Source: Candidatus Undinarchaeota archaeon
GTDB lineage: Archaea; SpSt-1190; JASMDC01
Assembly: GCA_964519305.1 (NCBI GenBank)
Contig: CAZFHY010000009.1
Coordinates: forward strand, 22,229 to 86,228
Direction: 5' to 3'
Length of the DNA stretch: 64,000 nt
Under the pieces are notes generated by a model. The model was given only the letters and a program-made list of their open reading frames with translations. It ran no database searches and was not told where the DNA came from. The first letter of the stretch is position 1. Each line of letters opens with the position of its first letter. This document shows, piece after piece, positions 4,804-61,734 of this stretch. A program made the translations under genes and the position numbers.

Positions 4804-4941
4804 ACATCGTCACCTAGTTCCCGAGGGCCTATTAAGGGTTAATATAGGTACCCTTTGGGTCCGAACGTGCGACAGTATGGCATCACGCCGTACCCGTTAT
4901 CCACTGCTACCTCACTGGAGAGTGACACCCCCATAGAAAGG

Positions 4942-4949
4942 TTTATAAT
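4942..4949 (+). promoter_or_regulatory. TATA box (tttataat) with purine-rich BRE (agaaagg) for the RecJ-like gene
   Basis: An AT island in a GC-rich background, centred about 28 nt upstream of ATG 4974. This implies a leaderless or near-leaderless mRNA. Confidence 0.55.
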
Positions 4950-4973
4950 CCGGGGACCTCGCTGCGGACACTC

Positions 4974-19206: not shown

Positions 19207-19243
19207 AGTTCTACCTCCCCTGCATAATCAGTACGCCGTGTCC

Positions 19244-19252
19244 TTTTTATAG
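19244..19252 (-). promoter_or_regulatory. TATA box (ctataaaaa on the minus strand) for the giant surface-protein gene
   Basis: AT island about 40 nt upstream of ATG 19206, followed by the SD GGGGAGG (19211-19220). Confidence 0.5.
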
Positions 19253-19301
19253 CTTGGGAAAGGTGTACGGGATTGCCAAACCGATCATGGCATGCTCGGA
19301 T

Positions 19302-19811
19302 CTAATCCCCATGATCGACAGTTTCTAGCACTTCGAGAAGTCCGCCAATATCACCGCCCATGAGAAGGCATCCAGCCCCCATGTCGGATACATCATTGAT
19401 GTTGAACGAACTGTCATCTACGAACAGGCATTCCTCGGGTCGCAGCTCGATGCCGTCCTTAGCGAGATCGCGCAGCATTTCCTTCACGGAACCACCCTTG
19501 GGCCGCCAGCATATGCTCAGACGTACGAAGGAATCACGCAGGTCCCAGCCATCCAGCGCTGCAAGGACCGGGGGTTCATCGTTGTGGGTGACAAGAGCAA
19601 GGAGCACATCACGCTCCTGCAGACCTTTCAGAAGCTCGCGAGCACCCGGGCGGAGGGCGATGGTGGCACCGCGGGTATCCTCCAGGGTATCAGCATCAAG
19701 TCGTCGGAGGGGAGGTCGGAGCAACGAAGCGTAGTCCGCACCCCGGCAGGTCCAAAGTGTCTCGTCACCGTCAAGGAGCACGAGCCGGTATGCCACGAAT
19801 CCCACAACCAC
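19302..19811 (-). CDS. HAD-superfamily phosphatase (MDP-1-like)
   Basis: HAD motif I 'LLDGDETLW', motif II 'LVTHN', Lys 'RPKGG', motif IV 'FVDDSSFN'. GTG start. Confidence 0.6.
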   Translation of the reverse strand: MVVGFVAYRLVLLDGDETLWTCRGADYASLLRPPLRRLDADTLEDTRGATIALRPGARELLKGLQERDVLLALVTHNDEPPVLAALDGWDLRDSFVRLSICWRPKGGSVKEMLRDLAKDGIELRPEECLFVDDSSFNINDVSDMGAGCLLMGGDIGGLLEVLETVDHGD

Positions 19812-19853
19812 TTGAAAGGTTTTTTAATCCTAGCCTGTCTAATATATTTGCTG

Positions 19854-20426
19854 GTGGTATTCATAGGGGAGAAGGAGCGGGATACCGAGGGAATCGAATT
19901 CTACCGCCGCATGTCCCAGAAGCGGCCCGACTACGCTCACACTTGGTACCGTCAGGGCAACATGCACGCGCTCAACGAGGAGTACCAGAAGGCCATAGAC
20001 TGCTACATGAAGGTCTTGGAGACACGCCCCGACCACGTCAATGCCCTCAACAACATCGGTAATGCCTACATGGCCAAGAAGATGTACAAGCAGGCCATCG
20101 ACCACTACCGCAAGGCGCTCGAGCTCAATCCAATGGACGAGCTTGCCTGGGGGAACCGGGGCATCGCCCATGGTTTCCTCGGTGAGTACAAAGAGGCAAT
20201 CCACTGCTTCGAACAGGCCCTGAAGTTCAATGATGAGAACGTCAAGGTCCTGAGCAACATGGGCATCACGTATTTCAACAAGGGTGAGCACATCGAGGCG
20301 CGGAAGTGTTTCAGCAAGGTGCTCGAAATCAGTCCCGATGACGAACTGGCTCTCTCGTGCCTGTCACGCATGAAGGATGATGAAGAGGAGTCCAAGCGAG
20401 GCCTCCTCAGCAGGTTCTTCTCATAG
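19854..20426 (+). CDS. TPR-repeat protein
   Basis: Four to five 34-aa TPR units (e.g. 'AHTWYRQGNMHALNEEYQKAIDCYMKVLETRPDH'). The start is uncertain: TTG 19848 or GTG 19854 if leaderless from the TATA at 19820-19827, otherwise ATG 19911. Confidence 0.65.
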   Translation: MVFIGEKERDTEGIEFYRRMSQKRPDYAHTWYRQGNMHALNEEYQKAIDCYMKVLETRPDHVNALNNIGNAYMAKKMYKQAIDHYRKALELNPMDELAWGNRGIAHGFLGEYKEAIHCFEQALKFNDENVKVLSNMGITYFNKGEHIEARKCFSKVLEISPDDELALSCLSRMKDDEEESKRGLLSRFFS

Positions 20427-40761: not shown

Positions 40762-41154
40762 TCATAGGGAAAAAGGATACTCATCGGAATCACACTCGGA
40801 GTCCTCGCTCTCGACCGGTTCGTCAGGCGTGGTCGTGTACGCACCGATGAACCCTCCGACGAGATACCCAGTCAAGGAGAACGTAGGGCCAAGGACCGCA
40901 AGACCTGCGGCTGTCCCCGTGATGTCCATGCCCAGATGGACGATGGGACCCGCATCGTCGAGGTACTCGTGGTTGAGGTAATCAGTCCAAGCGTACCCGG
41001 TGAACGCGGCCAGACCAAGGCCGATATAGCCACCGATGCGAGCGCCGCCGAACCAGCCCACGCCGCCCAGGTCGTCGCTCACTTCATAACCATCAGCAGA
41101 CCGAGTAGTATCATGACCATCGGTCTCCAGATCCATGTCGAACATCATCATCAC
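40762..41154 (-). CDS. small acidic-N-terminus / Gly-zipper TM protein (paralog family member 2)
   Basis: 'M(MMM)FDMDLETDGH...YEVSDDLGG' followed by Gly-rich hydrophobic segments. GGTGA lies before the ATG run. The exact Met (41154-41145) is uncertain. Confidence 0.6.
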   Translation of the reverse strand: MMMMFDMDLETDGHDTTRSADGYEVSDDLGGVGWFGGARIGGYIGLGLAAFTGYAWTDYLNHEYLDDAGPIVHLGMDITGTAAGLAVLGPTFSLTGYLVGGFIGAYTTTPDEPVESEDSECDSDEYPFSL

Positions 41155-41272: not shown

Positions 41273-41608
41273 CTATTCCTCGGTAGCGATGAGGTATCCG
41301 GCGGTAGCACCGGCGGCAGTGCAGCCTACATAGAGCGCGATGTCAGCAGCGTCCATCGGGGGAGGCGCATAGCGCTCCTGGATCGCAGGGATCTCTCGCA
41401 GGAGCTGGGGGATTATGCCATCGCCGGGAGGGCCCGTGGGGCCCCGGGGTTCGAACGTATTGTGTACGAGCTCGGCCAGTCCGAGACCTAACAGCCCACC
41501 GGCGAGAGTACCGGTCACGGAACCTGCGTCCAGGTCATCGGTAATACCATACGTGGGAGATGCGTCGCTCTCACTGTATCCTTCTGTCATGAGGTCCATG
41601 TCGTACAT
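41273..41608 (-). CDS. small acidic-N-terminus / Gly-zipper TM protein (paralog family member 3)
   Basis: 'MYDMDLMTEGY...YGITDDLDAG' then 'TLAGGLLGLGLAEL'. I prefer ATG 41608 (SD GAGGTGG 6 nt upstream) over GTG 41617. Confidence 0.6.
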   Translation of the reverse strand: MYDMDLMTEGYSESDASPTYGITDDLDAGSVTGTLAGGLLGLGLAELVHNTFEPRGPTGPPGDGIIPQLLREIPAIQERYAPPPMDAADIALYVGCTAAGATAGYLIATEE

Positions 41609-41763
41609 CGCGTCCACCTCTAGCTTCCTACAGGCGTTCGGGCATGCAGTCCCTTCTTATACCTGCTCTTGGGAGCCGTCCGTCACACCGCTTCGCACGG
41701 TCCGGGCCCGCCACGGGGCAACCCTTTTAACCCTTGCCTCCCCAGTCCCGGACAGGGATCACC

Positions 41764-42200: not shown

Positions 42201-42674
42201 GTGCGCGAGCGTAGGATGCTGTTCGCAGAAGTACTCCTTATCCTATGCATAGTGCTCATCTACGACCAGCTCACCGGGATCGATCCCATGAACGTGACCT
42301 TGGAGAGCGGTGAGTCGATAGCGGTCGCCGGGAGCACGTTCGATTACATGGACGCGATCATCTTCATCATCACGTCCTTTGTCGCTGGTGCGAGCTTCGC
42401 ATTCCTCTTCCTCAGCGGAGATGAGAAGGAGGACACATCGACACCACAGACCGAGAGCGCACCGCCCGACATCGCTCTTCTGCTCACGCCTGACGAGCGG
42501 AAGGTCTACAAGAAGATACAGGAGAACGAGGGCCAGATGCTCCAGAAGGACCTGGTCGCAGAGATGCCGTTCGGCGGAGTTAAGGTCAGCCGCATCATCA
42601 CCCGACTGGAGAAGAAGGGCGTGGCCGTTCGCTACAAGCATGGCCTTACCAACCGGATCGCCCTCAAGACCTAG
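42201..42674 (+). CDS. two-TM membrane protein with a C-terminal winged-helix domain
   Basis: TMs 'VLLILCIVLIY' and 'IIFIITSFVAGASFAFLFL', then the wHTH 'ERKVYKKIQENEGQMLQKDLVAEMPFGGVKVSRIITRLEKKGVAVRYKHG'. Start is GTG 42201 or ATG 42216. Confidence 0.65.
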   Translation: MRERRMLFAEVLLILCIVLIYDQLTGIDPMNVTLESGESIAVAGSTFDYMDAIIFIITSFVAGASFAFLFLSGDEKEDTSTPQTESAPPDIALLLTPDERKVYKKIQENEGQMLQKDLVAEMPFGGVKVSRIITRLEKKGVAVRYKHGLTNRIALKT

Positions 42675-42781
42675 AAGACTTGTGTTCTTTCAGGTGTTTT
42701 CATCCAGGTGAAAGCAGCTTCACATCATTACCGGGAACCTTCTTTAACCATTTCAGCGCTCATTGTTCCCGGTTGATCACA

Positions 42782-43438
42782 ATGGGCGTATACCAGCGAA
42801 TATCTGACATGGGCAAGTGGAAGCGGATCGCTCTGATCGTCGTGTGCATCTTCGGCCTCTTTCTAATAGGGGCGGTCCACAAGCATCGCGGATCGATCTC
42901 GGACCTCTCGGACACACAGAAGGCAAGTATCCTTGCCATCGCCGAGGCCGAGATGGGCACGGAGGGTACTCTGACAGCGCTCGAAAAGGCGCAGACGCTC
43001 AGGACCTGGGATGGCGAGTACACGATCACTAATGTCTACTATAATGGCACTGACGGGGACGCCCTGCTCACCATCGATCTCGATTCGGAACAGGTCATCC
43101 AGCGTATCGAACGTCGTGGCTGGATGGCACATGACAAGTACCGTGCGTACGACCGATCCCGCAAAGTCAAACAGGGAAGCCCGGGTCAACCTCCGATCCC
43201 CGCGCTCTTGCTGGATAGACGTCACCGGGGTTCGGGAGGCCCAATCATCCCCCTCGTGGTCCTCGTCGTGCTCGCATACGGCATCGACTGGCTCTTCTTC
43301 TCGCGGAAGGTAGAAGAAGAGTTTGACCGTGATGAAGAATCCGATAATGTTATAATCTCCGAAGAAAAAGAGGCGCTCTCAGAGGACGAAGAGCCCGAAG
43401 AAGAACCTGTCAAGAAGAAGAAGAAGAAGAAGAAGTGA
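42782..43438 (+). CDS. bitopic membrane protein with a PepSY-like ectodomain and a poly-Lys C-terminus
   Basis: TM 'IALIVVCIFGLFLIGAV'. 'ASILAIAEAEMG...YTITNVYYNG...LTIDLDSEQVI' resembles PepSY. Second TM, an acidic tail, then 'KKKKKKKK'. Confidence 0.55.
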   Translation: MGVYQRISDMGKWKRIALIVVCIFGLFLIGAVHKHRGSISDLSDTQKASILAIAEAEMGTEGTLTALEKAQTLRTWDGEYTITNVYYNGTDGDALLTIDLDSEQVIQRIERRGWMAHDKYRAYDRSRKVKQGSPGQPPIPALLLDRRHRGSGGPIIPLVVLVVLAYGIDWLFFSRKVEEEFDRDEESDNVIISEEKEALSEDEEPEEEPVKKKKKKKK

Positions 43439-43484
43439 GCTGCGAGATATCGAATTCATGTGAGAGCCTGAGAGGAAATGTGCC

Positions 43485-44312
43485 ATGGCGGATAGAGAAC
43501 TGGAGAATAAAAAGACGGTGATCATCACCAAGCACATAACGAAAGAGTACCATCTGGGCAAGGTCATCGTCCATGCCCTCCGTGACCTATCTCTCGAGGT
43601 GGAGGAAGGCTCGTTCGTTGCCATCATGGGGCCCTCTGGTTCGGGCAAGAGCACGCTCTTGCACATGATCTCGGCCCTGGACCGGCCGACGAGCGGTCAG
43701 GTCATCCTGGAGGACGAGGATATCACTGCTGCCTCGGACCGACGTCTCGCCCGCATCCGGAACAAGCAGGTGGGCTTCGTGTTCCAGTTCTTCAATCTCT
43801 TCCCCACGATGTCCGCCCAGGACAACGTGGAGTTCCCCATGATGATCGCGAACATGTCCGGGAGCAAGCGAAGGAAGCGCGCAAAAGAGCTCCTGGAGCT
43901 GGTCGGCCTCGGCGAACGACGCCACCATACACCGGGTGAGCTCTCAGGCGGACAGCGGCAACGCGTCGCCATCGCCCGGGCGCTCGCTAACGATCCACCC
44001 GTGGTCTTCTGTGACGAACCGACAGGCAATCTGGACTCGACGGCCTCAAAAGAGATCATGGAGCTCCTGCACCGGTTGTGCAAGGAGCAGGGAAAGACCA
44101 TCGTCATTGTCACGCATGATCCTGCCGTGGGCGCGGTCACGGATCGAATGATCGAGCTGTGCGACGGACAGATCAGCAAGGATCAAAAGAACGGCAAAGG
44201 TGAGAAACATGACAAGGAAGAGAAGCCTGCAAAGAAACGATCGAAGCGGAAGCGTTCCGCTGTCAAGAAACGTCCGAAGAAGGCAAAAGGAGGAGTGAAG
44301 AATGCAGAATGA
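43485..44312 (+). CDS. ABC transporter ATP-binding protein (MacB/LolD class) with a Lys-rich tail
   Basis: Walker A 'GPSGSGKST', Q-loop, signature '[16 protein letters not shown]', Walker B '[11 protein letters not shown]', H-loop 'VTHD', and a ~50-aa K-rich C-terminus. Confidence 0.9.
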
Positions 44313-45996
44313 TAACACCATCTACAACCTCGGGCTCGTGCTCGTGCTAGCGCTCGTTATGCTCACGACACCTGCGACCGCGGCTTCGTCATCGGTCAAG
44401 ATCCCCACGCTGGCCAACGTCCAGGTGTCCGTGCTGAATACCGATCCAGATACTGTTGAACCTGGTCGCGATCTCCTGCTCACACTCAAAGTGGAGAACT
44501 ACGGGAGCGAAGCGGCCGATAACGTTACTGTAACGTTCAAGCCACGATACCCCTTCGAGCTCAAACCCGGCGAGGATGCCATGACCGATGTGGGTCGTCT
44601 CGGCCCCCTTCGTGAGGCCTATGTCGAGTACGACCTTCTCGTACGCGAGGACGCTGTCGAGGGTGCGTACACGTTCGTCATCGACTCGTGCATGGATAGC
44701 TGCGAGAAGGACCGGTCATCCACCGAGCTCGACATCCGGGTGAACGCCGCACCAAGCGTCTTGCTTACCGCCACAAAGGTGCCCGAGCTCATCGGCTCCG
44801 ACATGGAGGTACCGGTCAGGATCACTGTTGAGAACGTAGGGGCCGGGCAGGCCCGCAAGGTGCAGGTCGAGTTCAGCACGGTACCATCGGGCTCAACGGA
44901 CGCGTCCCTGTTCACACTGGTGGACTCGGCACAGGTCGCGTTCCTCGGAGACATGGCACCCCGCTCGCTGCGTCACATCGACCTCATCTACCGTACCGGC
45001 GAGAAAGCCAGCGGCATCTACAAGCTTCCGGTCACGATCACCTACTCAGACGATGATGATGTGGAGAAGGATTTCACCGTCACCATTGACGTGAACGCTC
45101 AGCCCGACATCACCATCGGCCAGATCTCGGTCGATCCGCCCCGCATCCTTCCCGGCTCTGTGGTCAGCGCTACCATCCCCTTCACGAACACTGGCGACTG
45201 GAAGGCAGAGGACCTCAAGATCGTGCTTTCCACCATCCCCGTTGGCGCCACTGGCCAGACCACGCCCTTCGGGCTGGTGGACGGTACCGCCCAGCGCACC
45301 TATGACATCATCGCCGCGAACGGCTCCGACATGGCCACGTTCTCCCTGCTCGTGGACCCTGACGCCAGTGGTGTCTACACGCTCAAGGCCTATCTCACCT
45401 ACAAGGGGCTCGCTGCGCCCATGGAGGGCGTCATCTCCGTCCCCGTGTTCGGCGAACCCAGGCTCGAGGCCGCCGTGCGCGGTGTGAGCCAGGAGAACGG
45501 GAACCTCCAGCTCTCGGTGGACGTCATGAACTCCGGCAGCGGCACGGCCAACGCCATCGTGGTGGAGCTTGCGCCCTCGGACGAGGACGTGAAGCTCGTA
45601 TCATCACCACGCTCGCTCCTGGGATCGCTCGCGCCCAACGAGATCCAGACCGTGGACTTCACGCTAAAAGTGCCACAACCCGAGCCCGCGTTCACACGGC
45701 CCGGGGGACATGGCGAAGAACCCGAGGGAACACCGATGCCCACACCGGAGCCGGTGAAGCGCACCTTCTCCGCTGATGTGAGCCTCCACTACAAGAACGC
45801 CATGAACCAGGACCTTTCAGAGCCCACAGAGCTCTCATTCTCCGAGCCCCAGCGACAGTCATCTGGTATGGCCTCGGCCCATGGGGCGGGGGGCATGAGC
45901 AGGAACATCCAGTACGGGATGTATGCCTTGACGCTCATCGGTGCCCTGACCATCGTGCGCTGGCTCTTCGGCAAGCTGTTCGGAGGCGGGGACTAG
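44302..45996 (+). CDS. secreted CARDB/S-layer-domain-like multi-beta-sandwich protein with a C-terminal TM anchor
   Basis: Signal peptide. Repeated 'V.N.G...A.nv.V.f' units (VENYGSEAADNVTVTF, VENVGAGQARKVQVEF, VMNSGSGTANAIVVEL). C-terminal TM 'MYALTLIGALTIVRWLF'. Confidence 0.75.
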   Translation: MQNDNTIYNLGLVLVLALVMLTTPATAASSSVKIPTLANVQVSVLNTDPDTVEPGRDLLLTLKVENYGSEAADNVTVTFKPRYPFELKPGEDAMTDVGRLGPLREAYVEYDLLVREDAVEGAYTFVIDSCMDSCEKDRSSTELDIRVNAAPSVLLTATKVPELIGSDMEVPVRITVENVGAGQARKVQVEFSTVPSGSTDASLFTLVDSAQVAFLGDMAPRSLRHIDLIYRTGEKASGIYKLPVTITYSDDDDVEKDFTVTIDVNAQPDITIGQISVDPPRILPGSVVSATIPFTNTGDWKAEDLKIVLSTIPVGATGQTTPFGLVDGTAQRTYDIIAANGSDMATFSLLVDPDASGVYTLKAYLTYKGLAAPMEGVISVPVFGEPRLEAAVRGVSQENGNLQLSVDVMNSGSGTANAIVVELAPSDEDVKLVSSPRSLLGSLAPNEIQTVDFTLKVPQPEPAFTRPGGHGEEPEGTPMPTPEPVKRTFSADVSLHYKNAMNQDLSEPTELSFSEPQRQSSGMASAHGAGGMSRNIQYGMYALTLIGALTIVRWLFGKLFGGGD

Positions 45997-46000
45997 ACAT

Positions 46001-47236
46001 ATGGACCTGCTCTCCCTGTCGCTCGCCAACATCGGACGTCGCCTGTTCCGTAACGGGTTCACCGTGGTGAGTATCGCCATTGGCATCGCTGCCATAGTCG
46101 CGCTCCTGGCCCTTGGTGACGGGATGAAGGCATCGCTGGGCGACCAGCTCGGGCCCATGGCCGCCGACATAATCGTCATGCCCAAGTCCAAGGGCGTCCA
46201 GCGGGCCCGGGGCGGGCGCATGGGTCACGGTCCTCCCGGCCGGATGCGGTCGTTCGGCGGCGTCTACCCCATGGATGAGTCCATCCTCTCAGATCTTCGA
46301 CGTGTGAACGGCATCAAGTTCGTGGTCCCTCGTTACTCCACCCGCGGTCAGCTCAAGGTGGCGTCGGACGACTTCTCTGTATCGGTCATGGGCATCGATC
46401 CCGACGCCGAGAAGGACTATGATCAGATACCTGACTTCGCGGAAGGGAAGATGTTCCTCTCTCGTGACCGGAACATGGTGGTGCTGGGTGACCGTGTGGT
46501 GAGCGACTTCTTCCAGTTCCGCCGCCCCCAGGTCCGCTCCACGGTGGTCATCGAGGGACGCAAGTTCCAGGTTGCGGGCATCCTTGAGAAGGGCGGACAG
46601 GGGGGACCGGGAGGCTCCTATGACAACGCGATTCTCATGAGCCTCGAGGACGCGCGGGAGATCGGGGATCCCGAGGTGAAGGACCAACTCAGCAACCTCA
46701 TCGTGCGCGCAACATCCCCTGAGATCGCCGAGGACGTGGCCGAGGACATAGTCAAAGTGGTCGACACGGTCCAGACCATGGCCCTCTCCACCATGCTGGA
46801 GACCATCCAGGAGATCATGGGCACCTTCACGGCCTTCCTTGCAGGCATCGCGGGCATCTCACTGTTCGTGGCCGCAATCACTATCCTCAACAACATGTAC
46901 ACCGCAGTCATGGAGCGCCGGCGCGAGATCGGCACCATGAAGGCCCTTGGTATGGACAGCAGTCAGGTGCTCATCACTTTCTCCATCGAGGCGGGCATCC
47001 TCGGTCTCCTGGGCGGCGCCTTGGGCATCGCCATCGGCCTGGGCATCGGCCGGTTCGTGGAGTACATGCGACTGGGCGCCCCAGGGCCTGGTGACGCCTA
47101 CCTCATCCCGGTCTACCTCCCCGAGTACATGGTGGCCAGCGTGGTGTTCGGCGTCATGGTGGCGTTGCTGTCAGGCCTCTACCCCGCCTGGCGAGCATCG
47201 CAGCTCTCTCCTGTAGAGGCTCTGCGATTCGAGTGA
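46001..47236 (+). CDS. ABC transporter permease, FtsX/MacB type (4 TM plus a large extracytoplasmic domain)
   Basis: N-terminal TM, a ~230-aa loop domain, and a C-terminal FtsX-like 3-TM bundle ('LNNMYTAVMERRREIGTMKALG'). Confidence 0.85.
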   Translation: MDLLSLSLANIGRRLFRNGFTVVSIAIGIAAIVALLALGDGMKASLGDQLGPMAADIIVMPKSKGVQRARGGRMGHGPPGRMRSFGGVYPMDESILSDLRRVNGIKFVVPRYSTRGQLKVASDDFSVSVMGIDPDAEKDYDQIPDFAEGKMFLSRDRNMVVLGDRVVSDFFQFRRPQVRSTVVIEGRKFQVAGILEKGGQGGPGGSYDNAILMSLEDAREIGDPEVKDQLSNLIVRATSPEIAEDVAEDIVKVVDTVQTMALSTMLETIQEIMGTFTAFLAGIAGISLFVAAITILNNMYTAVMERRREIGTMKALGMDSSQVLITFSIEAGILGLLGGALGIAIGLGIGRFVEYMRLGAPGPGDAYLIPVYLPEYMVASVVFGVMVALLSGLYPAWRASQLSPVEALRFE

Positions 47237-47242
47237 GGCGGC

Positions 47243-48130
47243 ATGAGTATGGCCCCAAACGCACAATGGAAAGGTTTGGTGTTATCCTTCCTGCTTCTCG
47301 CCCTGGTCTGTGCCCAGGACGCTGCGCTCGACTCCTACCACCTCTCAGTTGATGTGCTGGAGAGCGGGGAGGCCCACTGTACCCTCTCGCTCACGTACCG
47401 GCAGGAGGGTGACGAGCTCTCTGGAGGCTATCTGGTGTTGCCCGGGAAGGCAAGCTATGTCTCCGTCACAGATAAAGAGGGTGCGCTCAAGTTCGGCTCG
47501 GCCGAGGTCGAGAACCTCACAGAAGTGAAGTTCTTGTTCCGCGACATCTTTCTCGATGGTGAGAGGTACACCGTCTCCGTGGAGTTCTGGACCTTCGACC
47601 TTACACGGAAGATGCTGGACGAGTGGGTGCTGGAGGTGGCGTATACCGACCCACCAGAGGTCGATAGCTATTCGCTATCGGTCACCCTTCCCGAGGGTGC
47701 CAAGTACATTCCCGGCGACGAGGTATGGTCTGCGGTGCAGGCCGAAGGGGGCCGTGTCATCCTCTCTACAGAGGGTGCAATGAGCGATACCATGGTCGCC
47801 TACTCCCTCACTTCCGACCGAAATACTGCTCTTCCCGACCTGTTCATGGGCCTGCTTGTATTCCTCGTGGGTGCGTTCGCAGGCTATCGCATGTTCCGGC
47901 AAGAGCCCCCTGCTGAACAGGAGCATGACATCACGCGCCTCTTGGATGACACCGAGAGGAAGGTCTACCAGCTTCTTTCCACTGACGGCCCGAGCCTGAG
48001 ACAGTCCGACATCGTCGAGCGCACAGGATTACCAAAATCAACGGTATCTAGAACGCTGGATCGGCTCGAACGGAAGAAGATAGTGAAGAAGGAGCGCCAT
48101 GGACGAGAATACAGGATAATACTTGCTTGA
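47243..48130 (+). CDS. membrane-tethered winged-helix DNA-binding protein with an extracytoplasmic domain
   Basis: Signal/TM 'LVLSFLLLALVCAQ', a ~190-aa ectodomain, TM 'LFMGLLVFLVGAFAGY', and the wHTH 'ERKVYQLLSTDGPSLRQSDIVERTGLPKSTVSRTLDRLERKKIVKKERHG'. Confidence 0.7.
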   Translation: MSMAPNAQWKGLVLSFLLLALVCAQDAALDSYHLSVDVLESGEAHCTLSLTYRQEGDELSGGYLVLPGKASYVSVTDKEGALKFGSAEVENLTEVKFLFRDIFLDGERYTVSVEFWTFDLTRKMLDEWVLEVAYTDPPEVDSYSLSVTLPEGAKYIPGDEVWSAVQAEGGRVILSTEGAMSDTMVAYSLTSDRNTALPDLFMGLLVFLVGAFAGYRMFRQEPPAEQEHDITRLLDDTERKVYQLLSTDGPSLRQSDIVERTGLPKSTVSRTLDRLERKKIVKKERHGREYRIILA

Positions 48131-48139
48131 TTCACCCCA

Positions 48140-48200
48140 GTTCCGCAGTTCCGCACGATATACGCCTTCGTTCCGCAGAAATTATTTATTTCGTTCCAGA
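48140..48200 (+). promoter_or_regulatory. four direct GTTCC(G/A)(C/G)A repeats embracing a TATA box (candidate operator)
   Basis: GTTCCGCA at 48140, 48148 and 48170, and GTTCCAGA at 48193. TATA aaattatttattt (48178-48191) lies between copies 3 and 4. ATG 48214 is about 29 nt from the TATA centre. Confidence 0.5.
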
Positions 48201-48213
48201 TATAGATGTAGTC

Positions 48214-48843
48214 ATGGTCAGTTCTGGAGAAAAGAAAGTAAGGGTCATCGGGGCGGTCCTCGTCGTCCTCATCCTATCCCTTATCACCGTCGAGGCCTTC
48301 AGGGGTCGTGGCAAGCACAGCTTCATCAGACAGAAACCCGCGTGGAAGCACCGACCCGGCGACATGCTCGTGGCCTTCGACATCACCGCGGCCGATGATG
48401 GCTCGATCGGTGCGCTCAAGGTGAAGCTTGATGAAGAAGGGTTCGAGAGCATCGCGAAGAAGACCTTCGACAAGGGCGAGGGTCCCCGGGACTACCTGAT
48501 CGTAAAGGGCCCCGTCGATAGCAGGGCGCTGCTCCCTGCCATCTCCGAGGCCACGGGATTCAAGGCAATCGGGCTCGGTTCGAAGAAGGATATCGGTTTC
48601 GCCCGTAAGGGGAAACGCGAGCGCTACGTCAAGCTCATGGTACCAAAAGAGAACATGGACGCCTTCGTTGAGGGCGCAACGGCCGCCAACGCGACCGCTA
48701 CGGTCGAGGACGGGTACGTCCTCGTCGTCGTGAAGATGGGTGAAGGAGCGGACGGCGGTAAGCTCCGCGAGCTCATCGGAAGCCAGAACGGAATACCGCT
48801 CACTTCGGGCGAGCGATGCGCATCGAGGGCGCGGAAGAGGTGA
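48214..48843 (+). CDS. bitopic membrane protein, function unknown
   Basis: N-terminal TM 'VIGAVLVVLILSLITV' and a ~170-aa extracytoplasmic domain. It occupies the position equivalent to 42782-43438 in the first cassette. Confidence 0.55.
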   Translation: MVSSGEKKVRVIGAVLVVLILSLITVEAFRGRGKHSFIRQKPAWKHRPGDMLVAFDITAADDGSIGALKVKLDEEGFESIAKKTFDKGEGPRDYLIVKGPVDSRALLPAISEATGFKAIGLGSKKDIGFARKGKRERYVKLMVPKENMDAFVEGATAANATATVEDGYVLVVVKMGEGADGGKLRELIGSQNGIPLTSGERCASRARKR

Positions 48844-48848
48844 TTACC

Positions 48849-51041
48849 ATGGTAGAAAGGCAGCGTTTGGTCAATCAATTGATAGTAGCGCTCTTGGCGC
48901 TCTGTACAATTCTCACCATGGTCACCGCCCCCGCCCTGTCCGACACGGTGACGCGATACCAGATCCTCGCCTCCGACATCGAGGTGGGTGATCCGGTGTT
49001 CAGCACCTATCCCACGGCCGGTACATGCTTCCTGATGAAGGTGCCCGCCACAAACAACGGCAACACCGAGGCCGATGAGATCGTTTTCAACCTGACCGTT
49101 GAAGAACCGTTCAGCTTCGACGGTGATAGTGGCGTCAAGACCATCAGCCGCCTTGGGTCCGGTGTGTGGGGATGGGTGGATTACAACCTCTGCGTCGACT
49201 CGGTAGCGCCTGAGGGCGAGTACGCTCTGGACATAACCCACACCTATGAGGAGCTTGGATCGGACTCCTACGTGCTCGGGAACATCACGCTCCCCGTGGG
49301 TGGGGTCCCACGCTTCGATCTCACGGTGGAGCCCACCACCGCTGACCTCAAGCTCGAGACCATGACATTCACCCTGGAGAACATCGGGACGGGTATAGCA
49401 AAGGACATCGAGCTCTTACTGGCCACCGATGGGACACCGCTGGTGCTAGAGGGGATGAACATCATCAACATCAAGTCCATCGAGGCGGGGGCGTCCCAGG
49501 CCTTCGAGTTCAAGGTACAGGTCACCGAGCTCACCCCCTTCAACCTACCGGTCACCATCACCTACTCCTCCAGCCTCGGCGAGACCACGACCCAGTCCAT
49601 CAAGGTGGGCATCTCGGCCCGTCAGAAGATCAGCACCGAGGGCCTGGAGATCGCGGAGGTCGCCATCGAGCCGGAGTTCGTGTTCCCGGGCCAGCGCTTC
49701 ACGGTCAAGTTCAGCGTGGAGAACGTGGGGCTATACGACGCCCGGCTGGTCAAGGTGGTCATGGGCAAGGTGGAGACCAATGACATCGTCACCGAAGTGT
49801 TCGTCCCTTCGGGGCAGGGGAACACCGTCCACCTGGGCACCATCCCTCCCGAGGGCTCGAAGAACGTTACCTTCACCATGCTCACCAGCGGTAACGCCAA
49901 CTCGGGCTCCTACTCGGTCCCGATAACGCTGCTGTTCGTTGACTTCGAGGACAACGACCGGGAGATCGACCGGAACATCGGTGTGGCGGTGCGCTCCAAG
50001 TCCACCCTTACGCCGACCGAGGTGACCACCGTGCCTGCCACCGTGACCGCGGGCTCCAGCTTCACACTCACCCTGGGAGTGTCCAACGGCGGCCCGGCCA
50101 AGGCCACATCGCTCAAGGTGCGGTTCCGCAAGAATGACAACTTCCAGCCAGTGGGGAAGGATACGGTGTTCATCGGTACGCTGGACGTGGACCTTGCAGA
50201 CTCTGCGGAGTTCGCAGTTATGGTCAGCCCGAAGGCCTCCGGTTCTGTCAGGCTTCCCGTCTTCTTCGAGTACGTTGACGACTACGGTAACACCATCCGG
50301 GAGATCGTGGAAGCTTCCATCACGGTCCAGGGTATCTCCCCCGAGGACCTTGCGGCGATGGGTGACAAGGGCGCAGGAAAGCGCACTACGATCAACAACG
50401 GGGCCGCGGCGGGCATCAGCATCATCTCGCCGGAGAAGAACGCTCTTGTGACAACGAAGCCGGTGAACATGGCCCTGGGGGCAGTAGGTCTCCTCGTCGT
50501 TGTTTACATACTTGGGAAGCTCATCGAGCCCAAGCGCTCCGAGAAGCACAGTGCGCTCATGCGCACCTTCAGCACTCTGGTGGCCAACCGTATGGCGCTC
50601 GCAGTGGTTGTGCTCATCGCTGGCGGTATCTGGCTTTATGGTGAGCGCGCCACGCTCCAAGAAGAGGTCACTATCTCCCAGCTGATTTCCGCCAACGCCG
50701 AGGTGAAAAAGCAGCTCTCCAAGGTCCCCGACATCACTTCCTGGCGCATCATGGCCATGGAGAAGGGGAGCCTCGACCAGAAGGTGGATGCGGGCAAGCT
50801 GCAGTTCATCACGACCTACGTGGTGACCCTCGAACCGGACATGGCGTCGGACAAGCGCGTGAAGGCCGAGGTCGACACCCGCATGGGCTCAGTGACCTCA
50901 ATGGACCTGTGCACGGTCGCAGGTGGCAAGGAGGACTGCAAGATCCTCTACGAGGCCAAGGACGAGGAGACCGACATGATGAAGAAGCTAGCCCAGGCCT
51001 ACGGCAAGGGTGGCGGCAGGATGAGAGTTCCCCGAAAGTGA
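48849..51041 (+). CDS. secreted CARDB/S-layer-domain-like multi-beta-sandwich protein with two TM segments and a C-terminal domain
   Basis: Signal peptide 'LIVALLALCTILTMVTAPALS'. Units ATNNGNTEADEIVFNL, LENIGTGIAKDIELLL, VENVGLYDARLVKVVM, VSNGGPAKATSLKVRF. TMs near residues 560-620. Confidence 0.75.
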   Translation: MVERQRLVNQLIVALLALCTILTMVTAPALSDTVTRYQILASDIEVGDPVFSTYPTAGTCFLMKVPATNNGNTEADEIVFNLTVEEPFSFDGDSGVKTISRLGSGVWGWVDYNLCVDSVAPEGEYALDITHTYEELGSDSYVLGNITLPVGGVPRFDLTVEPTTADLKLETMTFTLENIGTGIAKDIELLLATDGTPLVLEGMNIINIKSIEAGASQAFEFKVQVTELTPFNLPVTITYSSSLGETTTQSIKVGISARQKISTEGLEIAEVAIEPEFVFPGQRFTVKFSVENVGLYDARLVKVVMGKVETNDIVTEVFVPSGQGNTVHLGTIPPEGSKNVTFTMLTSGNANSGSYSVPITLLFVDFEDNDREIDRNIGVAVRSKSTLTPTEVTTVPATVTAGSSFTLTLGVSNGGPAKATSLKVRFRKNDNFQPVGKDTVFIGTLDVDLADSAEFAVMVSPKASGSVRLPVFFEYVDDYGNTIREIVEASITVQGISPEDLAAMGDKGAGKRTTINNGAAAGISIISPEKNALVTTKPVNMALGAVGLLVVVYILGKLIEPKRSEKHSALMRTFSTLVANRMALAVVVLIAGGIWLYGERATLQEEVTISQLISANAEVKKQLSKVPDITSWRIMAMEKGSLDQKVDAGKLQFITTYVVTLEPDMASDKRVKAEVDTRMGSVTSMDLCTVAGGKEDCKILYEAKDEETDMMKKLAQAYGKGGGRMRVPRK

Positions 51042-51051
51042 GGGTGCCGCC

Positions 51052-52308
51052 GTGCTATACGCTGCCTACTACGCTGTCCGGTACATCTGGAGCCGCAAGC
51101 TCCGCAGCCTCCTGACCGTGCTTGGTATCGCTGTAGGCGTTGCTGCTATCGTGTCGCTCCTAGGCATCTCCGCAGGGATGGAGGCCCAGGTGCTATCCTG
51201 GGTGGACACTCTTGGCATCAACAACATGGGTGTCTATCCCGCCGGTGGTGAGGACGACTATCCTGACGAGGACGACCTCGAGTACATCCTCCAGATGGAG
51301 CACGTGGACACCGCAGCCCTGTTCTACACCACAAACGGCCAGGTGCCTCCCCACGTGCGCAAGCGGGCCGAGCGCCTGTCGAAGGAAGTCCGAGGCATCG
51401 AGCCTACGGGGTCCGTGACCTTGGTGGGGACGGACCTTGCAGCCCTCCAGCGTATCCTGTCCATAGACATGCAGGACGGTGACTTTCCCACGACGCGGCA
51501 AGGCACCGCCATCGGGGCACGGGTCGCCCGGGGCCTGGTCTCGTCCGCCAACGAGCTCGAAGGAGTGGGCGGAAGGCTCCAACTCTTCCGCCTCGGCGCA
51601 GGCCAGGGCTCCAAGGGGAAGGCCGCCACCCTGGTCATCGATGGCGTCCTCACGGAGATGGGGAGGAGCTTCGTAGAGGTCGACTCCTCGGCCATCGTGT
51701 CGGTGGAGACATTCAAGAAGGTCACAGGGAACCTCAATCCCACGGCAGGCTACCTTGTGGTCCGGGTGGACAGCTATGAGAACGTAGACCTGGTGGAGTC
51801 GTCCCTGCAGTCCTACTTCACCTCGCGGGACAAGCAGGTGGACGTCAAGAGCTCCAAATCCGTCGTTGACTCCCAGCAGCAGGAGATGTACACCATGCAG
51901 ATCTTCTTCGGCAGCATCGGGGCCATCGCCCTGGTGGCCGGGTGCATCGGCGCTATCAACACCGTGCTCACCTCGGTCCTTGAGCGCACCCGGGAGATCG
52001 GGATGATGAAGGCCGTTGGGGCGTCATACAATTACGTGCTCATGCTCTTCATTTTAGAGTCGGCGGTGCTGGGTGTTCTCGGAGGCATCGTCGGCAATAT
52101 CATCGCCATCGGGATCTCCAGCGCCCTTTCAGGCGTCCTGGGGGGCGGCTCCAGCGGTATGCTCCGGCGTCTTGGCTCCGGTGCCGTGCTCTCCAATGAG
52201 CTCATGGTGTTCGGATTCCTCGTGGGGCTGGGCGCCTCCCTGCTCGCCGGATACTACCCTGCCAAGCAGGCTGCCAAGATGGACCCCATAACGGCACTGA
52301 GGTACTGA
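51052..52308 (+). CDS. ABC transporter permease, FtsX/MacB type
   Basis: GTG start. Same architecture as 46001-47236 ('LTSVLERTREIGMMKAVG'). Confidence 0.85.
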   Translation: MLYAAYYAVRYIWSRKLRSLLTVLGIAVGVAAIVSLLGISAGMEAQVLSWVDTLGINNMGVYPAGGEDDYPDEDDLEYILQMEHVDTAALFYTTNGQVPPHVRKRAERLSKEVRGIEPTGSVTLVGTDLAALQRILSIDMQDGDFPTTRQGTAIGARVARGLVSSANELEGVGGRLQLFRLGAGQGSKGKAATLVIDGVLTEMGRSFVEVDSSAIVSVETFKKVTGNLNPTAGYLVVRVDSYENVDLVESSLQSYFTSRDKQVDVKSSKSVVDSQQQEMYTMQIFFGSIGAIALVAGCIGAINTVLTSVLERTREIGMMKAVGASYNYVLMLFILESAVLGVLGGIVGNIIAIGISSALSGVLGGGSSGMLRRLGSGAVLSNELMVFGFLVGLGASLLAGYYPAKQAAKMDPITALRY

Positions 52309-52310
52309 CC

Positions 52311-53126
52311 ATGACCCTCATCGAGACCCATGCGCTGAAGAAGGAGTACCTCATGGGCAAGGTCATCGTCAACGCTCTGCGGGGAGTGGACGTAAAGATC
52401 GGTAAGGGGGAGTTCGTGGCCCTCGTCGGTCCGTCCGGCTCGGGGAAGAGCACCCTCATGCACCTCATCGGCGGCCTCGACTACCCCACAGAGGGCACGG
52501 TATCCGTTGAGGGTGAGGACCTCTACAAGATGACCGAGGGGGAGCTCGCTCACTTCCGGGGCATGAAAGTGGGATTCGTGTTCCAGTCCTTCAACCTCTT
52601 CAACCTCCTCTCGGCCAGGGAGAACGTGTATTTCCCCATGCAGTTCTCCGACATACCGTTCAACCAGTGGGGAGTGCGTGCCGACGAGCTGCTGGAGCTG
52701 GTGAAGCTCGGTGACTGGAAGCACCACAAGCCCACAGAGATGTCCGGCGGCCAGCAGCAGCGGGTGGCCATCGCCCGGGCGCTCGCTAACCACCCGGACA
52801 TCCTGCTCGCCGACGAGCCCACAGGGGAGCTGGATACCACGACGTCGCTTGAGATAATGGCGCTATTCGACCGCATCCGGAAGGAACAGGGCACGACCGT
52901 CATCATAGTGACCCACGACACGGAGATGGCCGCCCTTGCTGACCGGCAGATCAAGCTCATTGATGGCCATGTCGTGTCGGACATACGGAACCACAAGCCT
53001 GAAGTGAAAGCAAAAGGCAAGCAGTCGAAGAAGATCCCTAAGAAGAAGAAGAAGAAGACCGCTCCCAAGAAGAAAGTGACTGGAAAGAAAGGGACCGGTA
53101 AGAAGAAGACCAAGAAACCTGCTTGA
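52311..53126 (+). CDS. ABC transporter ATP-binding protein (MacB/LolD class) with a Lys-rich tail
   Basis: 'GPSGSGKST', '[16 protein letters not shown]', 'LLADEPTGELD' and 'VTHD'. C-terminus 'KGKQSKKIPKKKKKKTAPKKKVTGKKGTGKKKTKKPA'. Confidence 0.9.
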   Translation: MTLIETHALKKEYLMGKVIVNALRGVDVKIGKGEFVALVGPSGSGKSTLMHLIGGLDYPTEGTVSVEGEDLYKMTEGELAHFRGMKVGFVFQSFNLFNLLSARENVYFPMQFSDIPFNQWGVRADELLELVKLGDWKHHKPTEMSGGQQQRVAIARALANHPDILLADEPTGELDTTTSLEIMALFDRIRKEQGTTVIIVTHDTEMAALADRQIKLIDGHVVSDIRNHKPEVKAKGKQSKKIPKKKKKKTAPKKKVTGKKGTGKKKTKKPA

Positions 53127-58412: not shown

Positions 58413-59660
58413 CTACACCGAGTTCTCCAGGATGCGGATGAAGGCGGGGCGAGATACGAGCACGCTGACGAGCACCCCGAGGATGGTCGTGATGGCGAAG
58501 CCCTTCACAGCGCCCAGACCGACGAAGGTCAATGGCACCATCGCGCAGATGGTAGTGGAGGCGGCGGCGAAGATGATGAAGAACGCACGCTTGATGCGCG
58601 CCCGCCAGCCGTACACACGCTTCGTGTCCACGTCGCCCCGAATCATGGTGTCAGCGATGATGACCTGGTGGTCCACACCGGTCCCCACCGCGGCGATGAT
58701 GCCAGCGATGGCGGCCAGGTCGATCTGCCAGTGGATGAGCGAGGCCATCCCGAGGATGAGGATTATCTCCGAGGTGGAGGTGAAGAGGATGGAACCGACC
58801 ATGTAGGGCTCCCGGTACTTGACGATGAGGACGCACGCCACTCCGAGCAGTGCGACGAGGCCCGAGACCACGGATTGCTGCTTGAAGTCGGAACCGAGCT
58901 TGGGCGACACGTCGTTGATGGTCACGATGGATAGCTTGGTCGGTAACGCACCGGTAGACAGCACTGCCTGGAGGTAACGCATCTCGGAGAGCGCCTCCTC
59001 GCGGCTGGACGACGAGCCCTCGATACGGGCCTCGGTCGCTGGCTTGCACGCCATGCCCGACGCGATGCGGAGGTCTGACTTGACCACATCGTCCACCCTC
59101 AGGACCAGGTTGCACGCGGGCTCCAGGTACTCGCCTGTGGGATCGCGGGTGCAGTTGCACGTGGCGTCGGCGAACTTCCGCGCCTCATCGAAGTGCATCT
59201 CCACAGAGAACCAGAAGCGGAATACGTTCTCGCTCACCTGCGAGGTCCCGCTGCGCTGGGCATCGGTGAAAACGCGCTTGGTCTTTGTGAAGATTGTCTT
59301 GTTGCGGATCTGGCCCTCGAACTTGCCCTCTGCTTCGAGGTACCGTTCCGCCTCGGTGCGGTTCACACCGGCGAAGTCGATTATGATATACGAATTGCCC
59401 GAGAGCACATCGCTGACCACGCGGGTCGTCACGTCCTTAAGGGCGATGCGGTTGATACGCTGGTTGATGACGTTCCGTGCCGTCTCCAGGACGTCGGGGC
59501 CCACGGTGGCGTTGGGGGCCATGACGACGCGGACACCGCCCGAGATGTCGAGCCCGGTGTCGATACCACGGAACACGACGAGCGTGATGGACGCGATGAG
59601 GATGATCACGAGCAGGAGCACTTGAGGCTCCTTCAGGATCTTCTCGAAGTCCGGTTTCAT
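58413..59660 (-). CDS. secD: protein-export membrane protein SecD
   Basis: N-terminal TM, a large extracytoplasmic domain, and a C-terminal 5-TM bundle with 'IAGIIAAVGTGVDHQVIIAD'. Overlaps secF by 4 nt. Confidence 0.75.
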   Translation of the reverse strand: MKPDFEKILKEPQVLLLVIILIASITLVVFRGIDTGLDISGGVRVVMAPNATVGPDVLETARNVINQRINRIALKDVTTRVVSDVLSGNSYIIIDFAGVNRTEAERYLEAEGKFEGQIRNKTIFTKTKRVFTDAQRSGTSQVSENVFRFWFSVEMHFDEARKFADATCNCTRDPTGEYLEPACNLVLRVDDVVKSDLRIASGMACKPATEARIEGSSSSREEALSEMRYLQAVLSTGALPTKLSIVTINDVSPKLGSDFKQQSVVSGLVALLGVACVLIVKYREPYMVGSILFTSTSEIILILGMASLIHWQIDLAAIAGIIAAVGTGVDHQVIIADTMIRGDVDTKRVYGWRARIKRAFFIIFAAASTTICAMVPLTFVGLGAVKGFAITTILGVLVSVLVSRPAFIRILENSV

Positions 59661-60658
59661 TCGTCCACCCCCTCAAGTCGCCACTTGATGATGCCAGCGT
59701 TCTGGATCCAAGTGTTGATGACGTCGACGCTGATACCCAGAAGGAGCACTGTGGCGATCTCCTGTAGTACAGCGGCGTTGGATAGCAGGAGGATGGCGGT
59801 CACTGCGGCGATGGTAGTGGCCTCCATGGTGAGTCCTGTCATCATGGCGTCGAATATCCGATCGACGATACGACCCTCGCGACGCTTGAGTATGCGGGTA
59901 GTAAGGAGGATGTCCGAGTCAACGGAATAACCGATGAGCATCAGAAGCGCGGCGATGGTGGGCATCGAAAGCTTGATGCCCAATAGAGACATGAGCGCGT
60001 AGCTCTCCACTATATCGGAGAAGGCCGCGAGCATCACTGCCCCGGAGATGACGGGCTCACGGAAGAGTAGCGCGATAACAGCCCCCATGAGGACGAATGC
60101 AATCAATACTGCACGCTGTGCACCGGCGAAGGTGGACGCACTGATGGACGGATTGACCTGGTGGATGCTGTAGCTCCCGGTATCAATGTCTATGTTCAGC
60201 TGCTTCCCCAGTTCGGCCAGTATGGCATCCTTGTCGGGATCGCCCCCGACCTCGACCGCCACCTGGGTCTCGCCAGTGAGCGCGTTCTTGAGGACACGCA
60301 GCCGGATGTCCGAGCCGAAGCGACTTTGGAGCGCGCTCTCCAGCGTATTGGCGTTGACAGCAATATCGGTCTGGATGACTATCGAAAGTCCACCCTTGAG
60401 ATCTATGTCCTGCTCGGGCGGCATGGTGAATGCTATGACGAGAGCAATTGCGAGCATGGCGAAGGGGAGGATCATGAGCGTCTTGTAGTTCTTGTCGTAG
60501 TATTCTCTGAATTCGGCGATCTTAGGATGGAGCTCCTCCTTGGTCGTCTCTTCCTCGACCTTCTTTTTTTGGACCTTCTTAGGGACTTTGTCCTTCTTCC
60601 GGCCCTTGCTCTTCTTCTTGTCCGCCATGCGCTCGCCGCCTTCCAAAATGCTTTTCAA
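59657..60658 (-). CDS. secF: protein-export membrane protein SecF with a Lys-rich N-terminal extension
   Basis: 'ADKKKSKGRKKDKVPKKVQKKK', a TM, a small extracytoplasmic domain, and a TM bundle with 'LIGYSVDSDILLTTRILKRRE'. The start may be ATG 60628. Confidence 0.75.
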   Translation of the reverse strand: MKSILEGGERMADKKKSKGRKKDKVPKKVQKKKVEEETTKEELHPKIAEFREYYDKNYKTLMILPFAMLAIALVIAFTMPPEQDIDLKGGLSIVIQTDIAVNANTLESALQSRFGSDIRLRVLKNALTGETQVAVEVGGDPDKDAILAELGKQLNIDIDTGSYSIHQVNPSISASTFAGAQRAVLIAFVLMGAVIALLFREPVISGAVMLAAFSDIVESYALMSLLGIKLSMPTIAALLMLIGYSVDSDILLTTRILKRREGRIVDRIFDAMMTGLTMEATTIAAVTAILLLSNAAVLQEIATVLLLGISVDVINTWIQNAGIIKWRLEGVDE

Positions 60659-61323: not shown

Positions 61324-61734
61324 ATGCCGGGCAAAGGGAGCAAGAAGAAGAGTACTAAGGAGAAGGAGGAGAAGTCCGTGCGAAAGGAGAAGCTCGTCGA
61401 GAAAAAGGAAGAGACGGAGGCCGCTCCCGCCAAGAAAGAGGTCGAGGTAAAGGAAGCTGAGGTCGAGCTTCCGCCCGTCCCTCACCCAAAGAAGCGCAGG
61501 CCGATATCCACCTGGCAGAAGCCGGAGATCCTGGGTCTAGGATTCGGATTGTGCGCGCTTGGACTCGCTATCGTGATCGTGTACTATTCCTATATTATCG
61601 AGAAGGGCGTGGACTGGAGCATTGCCCACTTCGGTACCGAGTTCTACCACTTCTCCGTGCTGGGGATCTTCCTCATGGTCACAGGATCCATGTTCTTAGG
61701 AATGTACTTCGCGACGCCCAAGGAGTTCATGTAG
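61324..61734 (+). CDS. two-TM membrane protein with a Lys/Glu-rich N-terminal region
   Basis: 'GKGSKKKSTKEKEEKSVRKEKLVEKKEE' followed by two hydrophobic helices. Confidence 0.5.
   Translation: MPGKGSKKKSTKEKEEKSVRKEKLVEKKEETEAAPAKKEVEVKEAEVELPPVPHPKKRRPISTWQKPEILGLGFGLCALGLAIVIVYYSYIIEKGVDWSIAHFGTEFYHFSVLGIFLMVTGSMFLGMYFATPKEFM

Follow-up and report, generated by a model that had tools for sequence, protein, structure and literature searches.

ATP-binding cassette (ABC) systems of type VII, among them MacB, LolCDE, FtsEX, BceAB and YbbAP, serve as a model for work that is done outside the cell and powered by ATP inside it, and each characterised system is defined by its extracytoplasmic partner. 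To our knowledge, all of the characterised systems are bacterial. Here we describe a ten-gene region of an archaeal genome, at positions 42201 to 53126 of a 64,000-nucleotide stretch (the window) of contig CAZFHY010000009.1 from a Candidatus Undinarchaeota archaeon (assembly GCA_964519305.1). Its two sets of genes, A and B, each encode an ABC ATPase, a permease with MacB_PCD and FtsX domains, a CARDB-like protein, a small membrane protein and a winged helix-turn-helix (wHTH) regulator with predicted transmembrane (TM) segments. The ATPase, CARDB-like and permease genes form a trio that is very widespread in archaea and ranks among the commonest conserved operons of DPANN archaea. It is proposed that the two sets specify self-regulated type VII ABC machines in which the CARDB-like protein would be the dedicated extracytoplasmic partner, a reading to which we assign a probability of about 0.5.

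Comparison with described systems

The best-matching solved structures come from MacAB-TolC and from the pneumococcal Spr0693-0694-0695 system (5xu1), which also have a separate ATPase, a 4-TM MacB_PCD permease and, encoded in the same operon, a third, extracytoplasmic protein anchored in the membrane. The window differs from both in having neither a membrane-fusion protein nor an outer-membrane duct, in belonging to an archaeal envelope, and in its third component, which is a CARDB-like beta-sandwich chain with a C-terminal helix anchor. LolCDE resembles the region in that LolD is the best NCBIfam model of the ATPase, in that set B of relatives includes a lipobox-protein gene, and in that paired paralogous permeases, comparable to LolC and LolE, are found in most DPANN versions and in two close relatives; however, the scores are far below the cut-offs, the window has one permease per set, and neither LolA nor LolB is found among the ten genes. 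In FtsEX-EnvC/PcsB and BceAB-BceRS a type VII module is likewise genetically coupled to an extracytoplasmic partner and a transcription regulator. Unlike the former, the window has FtsX and FtsE scores under cut-off and no coiled-coil hydrolase activator; unlike the latter, it has neither a 10-TM permease of the BceB type nor a histidine kinase, and its regulator is a one-component wHTH protein. The HAAS-PadR dyads (PMC11237479) also tie a wHTH protein to a module of the MacB/FtsX type, and the archaeal trio most often has PadR as its regulator; however, no HAAS domain was found among the ten proteins, in which the wHTH protein itself carries the TM segments.

For archaea, Makarova et al. (PMC4158269, 2014; PMC5898192, 2015) reported loci from Archaeoglobi, Methanococci and Thermococci in which SalXY-family ABC transporters occur with predicted surface-layer (S-layer) proteins, and proposed that these loci encode membrane-associated complexes or defence systems. 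They place the same kind of ABC transporter beside predicted S-layer or immunoglobulin (Ig)-like proteins, the proteins being likened here by description; in those studies, however, the link is a passing mention within larger loci organised around COG1300 and Yip1-like membrane proteins, and the papers do not treat the trio as one unit and are silent on its distribution in DPANN archaea, the wHTH link and membrane-tethered regulators. A full-text literature search returned no paper treating the trio as a unit, its DPANN spread or the linked membrane-tethered wHTH protein, and no experimental study of the archaeal trio. New here are a type VII ABC system whose partner belongs to another class, being a membrane-anchored beta-sandwich chain, and which occurs in hundreds of genomes and is retained in the reduced genomes of DPANN archaea, and its pairing with a one-component membrane regulator. 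The window offers membrane-protein regulators and two diverged neighbouring copies with conserved candidate operators, and so provides a compact system for studying the assembly and regulation of an archaeal envelope machine.

Gene layout and ABC components

A preliminary description of the region, made from its sequence before the present analysis, had listed ten co-directional genes with wHTH, ATPase, CARDB and MacB/FtsX labels. At the coordinates then claimed, the + strand does contain all ten open reading frames (ORFs), and each of these labels is matched in Pfam above the gathering score, the cut-offs being 25.5 bits for FtsX, 27 for MacB_PCD, 22.7 for CARDB and 27.6 for DUF7343. As was also noted there, the ATPase slot is permuted, being third in set A and last in set B. 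Intergenic spacing runs from -11 to 107 nucleotides (nt), with the A3 and A4 reading frames overlapping by 11 nt, and the two widest gaps (107 and 83 nt) directly precede the small membrane-protein genes A2 and B2. For three genes the start given earlier is an internal ATG (42782, 48214 and 48849); the first two are backed by gene calls in close relatives, and the relatives' calls for the third protein, B4, start further in.

The ATPases A3 (43485-44312, +) and B3 (52311-53126, +), which are 54% identical in pairwise BLASTP, match Pfam ABC_tran with 132 and 125.8 bits, and the Walker A, signature and Walker B motifs can be read in both translations, including (R/Q)QRVAIARA and DEPTG. The best Protein Data Bank (PDB) matches of A3 are 5xu1_A (Spr0694 of Streptococcus pneumoniae) and MJ0796 of Methanocaldococcus jannaschii, followed by MacB and LolD. 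MJ0796, long used as a model ABC ATPase, is a close homologue of the window ATPases and lies within what we take to be an operon of the trio type. The permeases A5 (46001-47236, +) and B5 (51052-52308, +) score 94.4 and 59.7 bits with MacB_PCD and 72.4 and 58.3 bits with FtsX, and in both of them hydropathy gives a first TM segment, an extracytoplasmic loop of about 240 residues and three further TM regions, that is, four TM segments. The best PDB matches are MacB (5gko) and Spr0695 (5xu1_M) for A5 and MacB for B5, and the nearest solved relatives of the permeases comprise MacB, Spr0695, YtrF and LolF/C/E. The earlier view of the ABC genes as MacB-like or type VII-like is borne out by the Pfam domains and by the nearest structures, MacB and Spr0694/0695.

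With the narrower NCBIfam models the scores remain below cut-off throughout: A3 and B3 reach 244.7 and 225.7 against 307.75 for LolD, which is still their best model, and 208.9 and 204 against 264.85 for FtsE; A5 and B5 reach 81.8 and 52.4 against 362.45 for lolCE, and the permeases 39-48 bits against 225-255 for FtsX, the MacB equivalog scores being likewise well under cut-off. As judged by these profiles, the ABC genes of the two sets are members of the type VII superfamily that lie outside every named family scored in NCBIfam. Among the ten proteins no HlyD/MacA membrane-fusion domain was found with Pfam or NCBIfam, and Pfam gave no histidine kinase, receiver domain or hydrolase activator.

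Both ATPases end in a basic tail, Lys/Arg-rich in A3 and Lys-rich in B3, with 12 and 18 Lys per 30 residues, respectively. At least 10 Lys in 30 residues are found in 4 of the 58 long ORFs of the window, and the homologous DPANN ATPases, of 225-235 amino acids (aa), are tail-less, in agreement with the earlier remark that these tails are unusual. The sole other Lys-rich long ORFs of the window are at 59657-60658 (-) and 61324-61734 (+), with 13 and 11 Lys per 30 residues, in both cases at the N-terminus.

Conservation of the trio across archaea

Two kinds of seed were used to follow the genes through other genomes. With the permease as seed, contigs of homologues of 29-67% identity were collected, and each of the five archaeal loci sequenced on both sides (L002-L006) has a CARDB-like gene next to the ABC genes, with three gene orders among them. 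A locus with a permease of 33% identity (L003) has the ATPase, a 415-aa CARDB protein, the permease and then PadR; L004 has a divergent 2-TM DUF7343 wHTH gene, a 55-aa TM protein, the ATPase, a 321-aa CARDB homologue and the permease; Methanoregula (L005) and Archaeoglobus (L006) have the order CARDB, ATPase, permease. A control locus from a Nitrospirae bacterium (L008) contains the permease and the ATPase and no CARDB gene.

With the CARDB-like protein as seed, word-index homologue searches using A4 (and likewise B1) returned only 3-4 close relatives, and an exhaustive profile search with the CARDB family returned 2173 clusters at 50% identity with E<=1e-3, 829 of them with E<=1e-10, most members having about 400-430 residues. 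When one genome per species was scanned with the CARDB-family alignment, at least 480 loci matched. Of these, 80 were kept, mostly from Woesearchaeota and Nanoarchaeota, towards which the narrow alignment biased the selection, and they were annotated with hidden Markov models (HMMs) derived from the window proteins and from homologues of these. The order ATPase-CARDB-permease-permease on one strand is seen in 61 of the 78 DPANN loci inspected, contig ends cutting most of the others, and the median gaps along this row are 1, 12 and -4 nt, approximate values taken from longest-ORF calls. There is one CARDB gene per transporter, placed between ATPase and permease; because of this placement and number, and of the overlap with the ATPase gene in the window, a stoichiometric subunit would fit. 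That the trio is linked from both seeds and in three gene orders points to a functional link rather than to inherited synteny.

The same-strand gene immediately upstream of the DPANN cassette encodes a wHTH protein of about 165 residues, PadR in 19 of 46 cases and MarR or another wHTH in most others. A metagenome scan with an alignment of the A1 type gave nine loci (GC content 31-41%), and a gene for a 2-TM wHTH protein of 178-208 residues lies divergently beside ATPase-CARDB(-permease) in all eight loci with enough sequence. The membrane-tethered form of the regulator is lineage-specific yet consistent. Synteny in related genomes had been set beforehand as a test, and the exporter, CARDB-like and wHTH genes are indeed linked across archaea; the fixed association with a membrane-anchored DNA-binding protein that had been suggested for this locus holds only in some lineages, a soluble protein of the PadR or MarR kind being the usual regulator, and the trio is not special to this locus. 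In PADLOC, which covers known anti-phage defence systems, the only matches were generic ABC-ATPase, FtsX-TM and wHTH ones, with none for the CARDB or small TM proteins.

Most DPANN loci also have, divergent from the cassette, two genes for paralogous single-TM proteins of about 195 and 270 aa (85 members across the 80 loci, for instance at 4444-5106, -, in L063); these show no similarity to A2 or B2 and belong to no Pfam family. A wHTH gene near a B5-like permease in L033 encodes a soluble 318-aa protein that has only the wHTH in common with B1.

Comparison of the close relatives shows that this envelope locus is evidently variable. Both L002 (9001-12502) and L089 (11743-14247) have two permeases in set A, with 67% and 93-95% identity to A5, a gene for a VTT/DedA-like membrane protein lying between the two in L002; the window, L090 and L091 have a single one. 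In L090 a second set-B CARDB gene (18243-20381) follows the ATPase and encodes a 712-aa protein 89% identical to its neighbour, and in L091 (GCA_030753015.1, 13681-16438) the set-B permease and ATPase are missing and the CARDB gene abuts a Nuc_deoxyrib_tr gene, which looks like loss of the transporter by recombination between two CARDB copies.

The CARDB-like proteins

A4 (44302-45996, +) and B4 (48849-51041, +) match Pfam CARDB with 49.1 and 54.4 bits, overlapping with DUF11 and NPCBM_assoc matches, and an HMM of the DPANN CARDB-like family of about 420 aa recovers them with E values of 2e-61 and 1e-35. By hydropathy, both start with what resembles a signal peptide and carry a C-terminal TM helix; in B4, which has several beta-sandwich domains, the TM segments are at residues 534-552 and 576-594, and the second is followed by an extra C-terminal domain of about 130 aa. 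The AlphaFold2 (AF2) model of A4, with a predicted local distance difference test score (pLDDT) of 72, has four all-beta, beta-sandwich domains and a helix at residues 535-559. Domain number in the family is two in L004, three typically, four in A4 and six in the homologue P0003. Foldseek with the A4 model returned generic tandem Ig-like matches only, with TM-scores of at most 0.36; they included ciliary ASH-domain proteins, alpha-2-macroglobulin with its MG domains, and integrins, and gave no functional lead. A profile of the family found no solved relative in the PDB. The designation of such proteins as part of the S-layer appears to be an annotation label only.

Predicted membrane-tethered regulators and candidate control sites

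The regulator A1 (42201-42674, +) carries DUF7343 (41.3 bits) at its C-terminus, residues 97-155, preceded by predicted TM segments at residues 6-24 and 53-71 around a short outside loop, and has homologues of like build beside the trio in L004 and L092-L100. B1 (47243-48130, +) also has DUF7343 at its C-terminus (51.2 bits), where MarR_2 is matched as well; its hydrophobic segments, at residues 11-29 (signal peptide or TM) and 196-214, enclose an all-beta ectodomain of about 165 aa. In the AF2 model of B1 the wHTH is confident (pLDDT 80-90) and the ectodomain poor (about 55). From this topology the wHTH of both proteins would be placed in the cytoplasm, where it would bind DNA.

A full-length paralogue of B1, a third DUF7343 wHTH protein, of 330 aa and with the architecture of B1, is encoded at 247-1239 (+) of the window (22% identity over 323 aa, E 6e-9). 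The end of this gene overlaps the start of another at 1218-3959 (+), for a secreted Cys-rich multi-domain protein of 913 aa with a weak A2M_BRD match, and there are no ABC genes near this pair at 247-3959. Regulators of the B1 type thus also pair with large surface proteins that lack ABC neighbours, and they appear to form a small paralogous family within the source genome. B1 itself begins 6 nt past A5 (47237-47243), whereas relatives have 53-91 nt at this point. Transcription of set A may run on into B1, much as the PadR gene trails the permease in L003, and the set boundaries drawn in the preliminary description may differ from the transcription units.

The spacers ahead of A2 and B2 hold candidate operators over archaeal promoters. 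In the A1-A2 spacer, at 42730-42773, an inverted repeat ACCGGGAAC-N26-GTTCCCGGT, with 9-nt arms that are 100% complementary, flanks a TATA-like TTTAAC; its core CGGGAAC...TCCCGG is unchanged in three relatives, and the mean column identity of the spacer is 90%. In the B1-B2 spacer, at 48140-48197, three copies of GTTCCGCA and a fourth GTTCC surround a TATA-like AAATTATTTATTT. The three are exact 8-mers within 38 nt, and the window as a whole has 7 copies of GTTCCGCA, where 2.5 would be expected; GTTCC sites 1, 3 and 4 are invariant in three relatives, and site 2 is GTCCC in one of these. The inverted repeat at 42730-42773 likewise has GTTCC at its inner end. Column identity is 87-90% in the two spacers, a conservation equal to or above that of the neighbouring proteins.

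Proposed mechanism and alternative explanations

In the proposed machine, a cytoplasmic ATPase dimer would drive the 4-TM permease with its large extracytoplasmic domain, and the CARDB-like protein, exported by means of its signal peptide and held in the membrane by its C-terminal helix, would join them in a physical complex as a stalk or adaptor between the membrane and the surface layer, a role played in bacteria by MacA, Spr0693 and EnvC. ATP binding and hydrolysis would be relayed mechanically through the permease to its outer domain. Together with the stalk, or seated on it, this domain would push out or pull free a substrate on the membrane's outer side, most probably a toxic compound or peptide of amphipathic character. 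The wHTH protein, in most DPANN archaea a soluble protein of the PadR or MarR type encoded first, would control the operon, presumably as a repressor, and PadR/MarR regulation would fit a response to noxious compounds. In the window, the membrane-fixed DUF7343 wHTH could read the state of the membrane or of the transporter directly, and could bind the conserved GTTCC-containing repeats that overlie the TATA-like boxes ahead of A2 and B2.

Several points weigh against this proposal. It is gene order, and that only, that would give the CARDB-like protein its partner role, and the likeness of the predicted A4 fold to known proteins is generic and so gives no clue to function. Regulation by PadR or MarR is compatible with efflux and unspecific, and the sequences before A2 and B2 are candidate sites whose assignment as operators is conjectural. 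Moreover, because L091 keeps the set-B CARDB gene only and L090 has a spare copy, the CARDB-like protein can persist without its own transporter. The proposal can also be taken further, to an archaea-specific tripartite type VII machine in which the Ig-like chain would replace the membrane-fusion protein as a conduit under the surface layer, and which would be kept in tiny DPANN genomes for an essential surface task, such as extracting or passing lipids or other hydrophobic molecules at host contact, with the tethered wHTH as a one-protein sensor and regulator of the machine's state; this extension we hold to be doubtful.

The persistence of a CARDB gene without ABC genes in L091 and the extra copy in L090 would be readily accommodated if the CARDB-like protein were the cargo, its anchor being extracted in the manner of LolCDE and the protein handed to the surface layer or cell surface by what would then be a dedicated surface-protein assembly system. 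Proteins of the COG1361 type are annotated 'S-layer domain' (PMC10354927; PMC5898192), they have between 2 and 6 domains depending on the lineage, a variation also seen in surface-exposed proteins, a lipobox protein is encoded inside set B of relatives, and the best NCBIfam model of the ATPase is LolD. However, the scores of the Lol models are far under cut-off (81.8 against 362 and 244.7 against 307.75), the C-terminal helix with its basic tail resembles a permanent anchor, and strict one-to-one pairing, tight spacing and a position between ATPase and permease would be unusual for a substrate, so that we consider a cargo role quite improbable. It may also be asked whether any substrate is moved. 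By analogy with FtsEX and BceAB, ATP could be spent on a conformational switch in the CARDB-like protein, for instance in attachment to a host cell or to the surface layer, or membrane stress could be relayed to the tethered wHTH by intramembrane contact. Type VII systems include pure mechanotransducers such as FtsEX-EnvC, and bacterial FtsX/MacB_PCD domains are coupled through HAAS domains to a PadR wHTH as a signalling pair (PMC11237479). Here the wHTH is membrane-embedded and always adjacent, a B1-type regulator accompanies a large surface protein in the absence of ABC genes (window 247-3959), and the close relatives are labelled Undinarchaeales (NCBI), DPANN archaea that live attached to hosts. 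Such signalling or actuation nevertheless seems unlikely, given that free-living Methanoregula and Archaeoglobus have the trio without an adjacent membrane wHTH, that most DPANN loci have a soluble PadR or MarR, that FtsX and FtsE scores lie under cut-off, and that the permease has four TM segments with no histidine kinase nearby, unlike BceAB-BceS.

The preliminary description had taken the two sets for a tandem, rearranged duplication of a five-gene cassette. The two sets are adjacent and co-directional and have the same four domain types, and the 54% identity of the ATPases would suit a recent event in the source genome. By BLASTP, however, the permeases are only 27% identical and the CARDB-like proteins 22-27%, and against a panel of about 270 permease homologues from other archaea and bacteria each permease is almost the most distant of the other's homologues, B5 ranking 267th of 273 for A5 and A5 271st of 272 for B5. 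The ATPases, for their part, are each about as near to those of other DPANN phyla (50-55%) as to the neighbour. A1 and B1 have the wHTH alone in common, being alignable over their last 72-73 residues or so (36% identity; hhalign probability 97.8%, in profile-profile comparisons that used orthologues from three close relatives), and A2 and B2 are unrelated, with no similarity by BLASTP and an hhalign probability of 0.3%. The whole ten-gene arrangement is found in close relatives with both sets already distinct, the order kept and 60-95% protein identity. Paralogy thus holds for the ATPases, permeases and CARDB-like proteins and, in the wHTH pair, for the C-terminal domain, and fails for A2/B2; the similarity of the non-ABC pairs, which had been set beforehand as a test, is accordingly present in the CARDB pair and the wHTH domain and missing from the small membrane proteins. 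Because each permease comes near-last among some 270 homologues of the other, the split appears to be ancient. We therefore regard a recent duplication as very improbable, and the two sets are forms of one operon type, either paralogues of ancient divergence or acquired separately.

Small membrane proteins and neighbouring genes

A2 (42782-43438, +) was recognised as an ORF with TM segments at residues 16-34 and 155-173, an ectodomain of about 120 aa between them and an acidic tail ending in K8. It has no significant Pfam or PDB match, and its family is unassigned; the earlier label 'PepSY-like' has to be dropped, as Pfam gave no PepSY at E<=0.01 and a profile of five homologues gave nothing relevant in the PDB at E<=10. 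A2 is kept in close relatives and has a weak match (21% over 96 aa, E 4e-5) in a lineage of 37% GC (L001), where the homologue likewise sits ahead of the ATPase gene. B2 (48214-48843, +) has a single TM segment at residues 11-29 and no Pfam or PDB match. With hhalign it is remotely homologous (probability 91%, E 1e-6) to a family of lipobox-like proteins (…ALSGC…) of 261-263 aa, one of which is encoded between B2 and the set-B CARDB gene in all four relatives, for instance at 12889-13674 in L090, 14157-14948 in L002 and 15902-16693 in L089, equivalent to about 48845 of the window, where there is only a 5-nt gap and no lipobox gene. Profile comparison found no homology between A2 and B2, between A2 and the C-terminal domain of B4, between B2 and the C-terminus of B4, or between B1 and B2.

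The flanks of the region contain genes for a ribosomal protein, an RNA polymerase subunit and NAC, all of archaeal type. Just ahead of set A, a pair of small ORFs lies side by side at 40762-41154 (-) and 41273-41617 (-). Their N-termini are acidic and resemble each other (…FDMDLETDGHD… and …YDMDLMTEGYS…, respectively), both have Gly-rich hydrophobic stretches, and they possibly encode paralogous small membrane proteins; relatives have genes of 111-127 aa without a Pfam match at this position.

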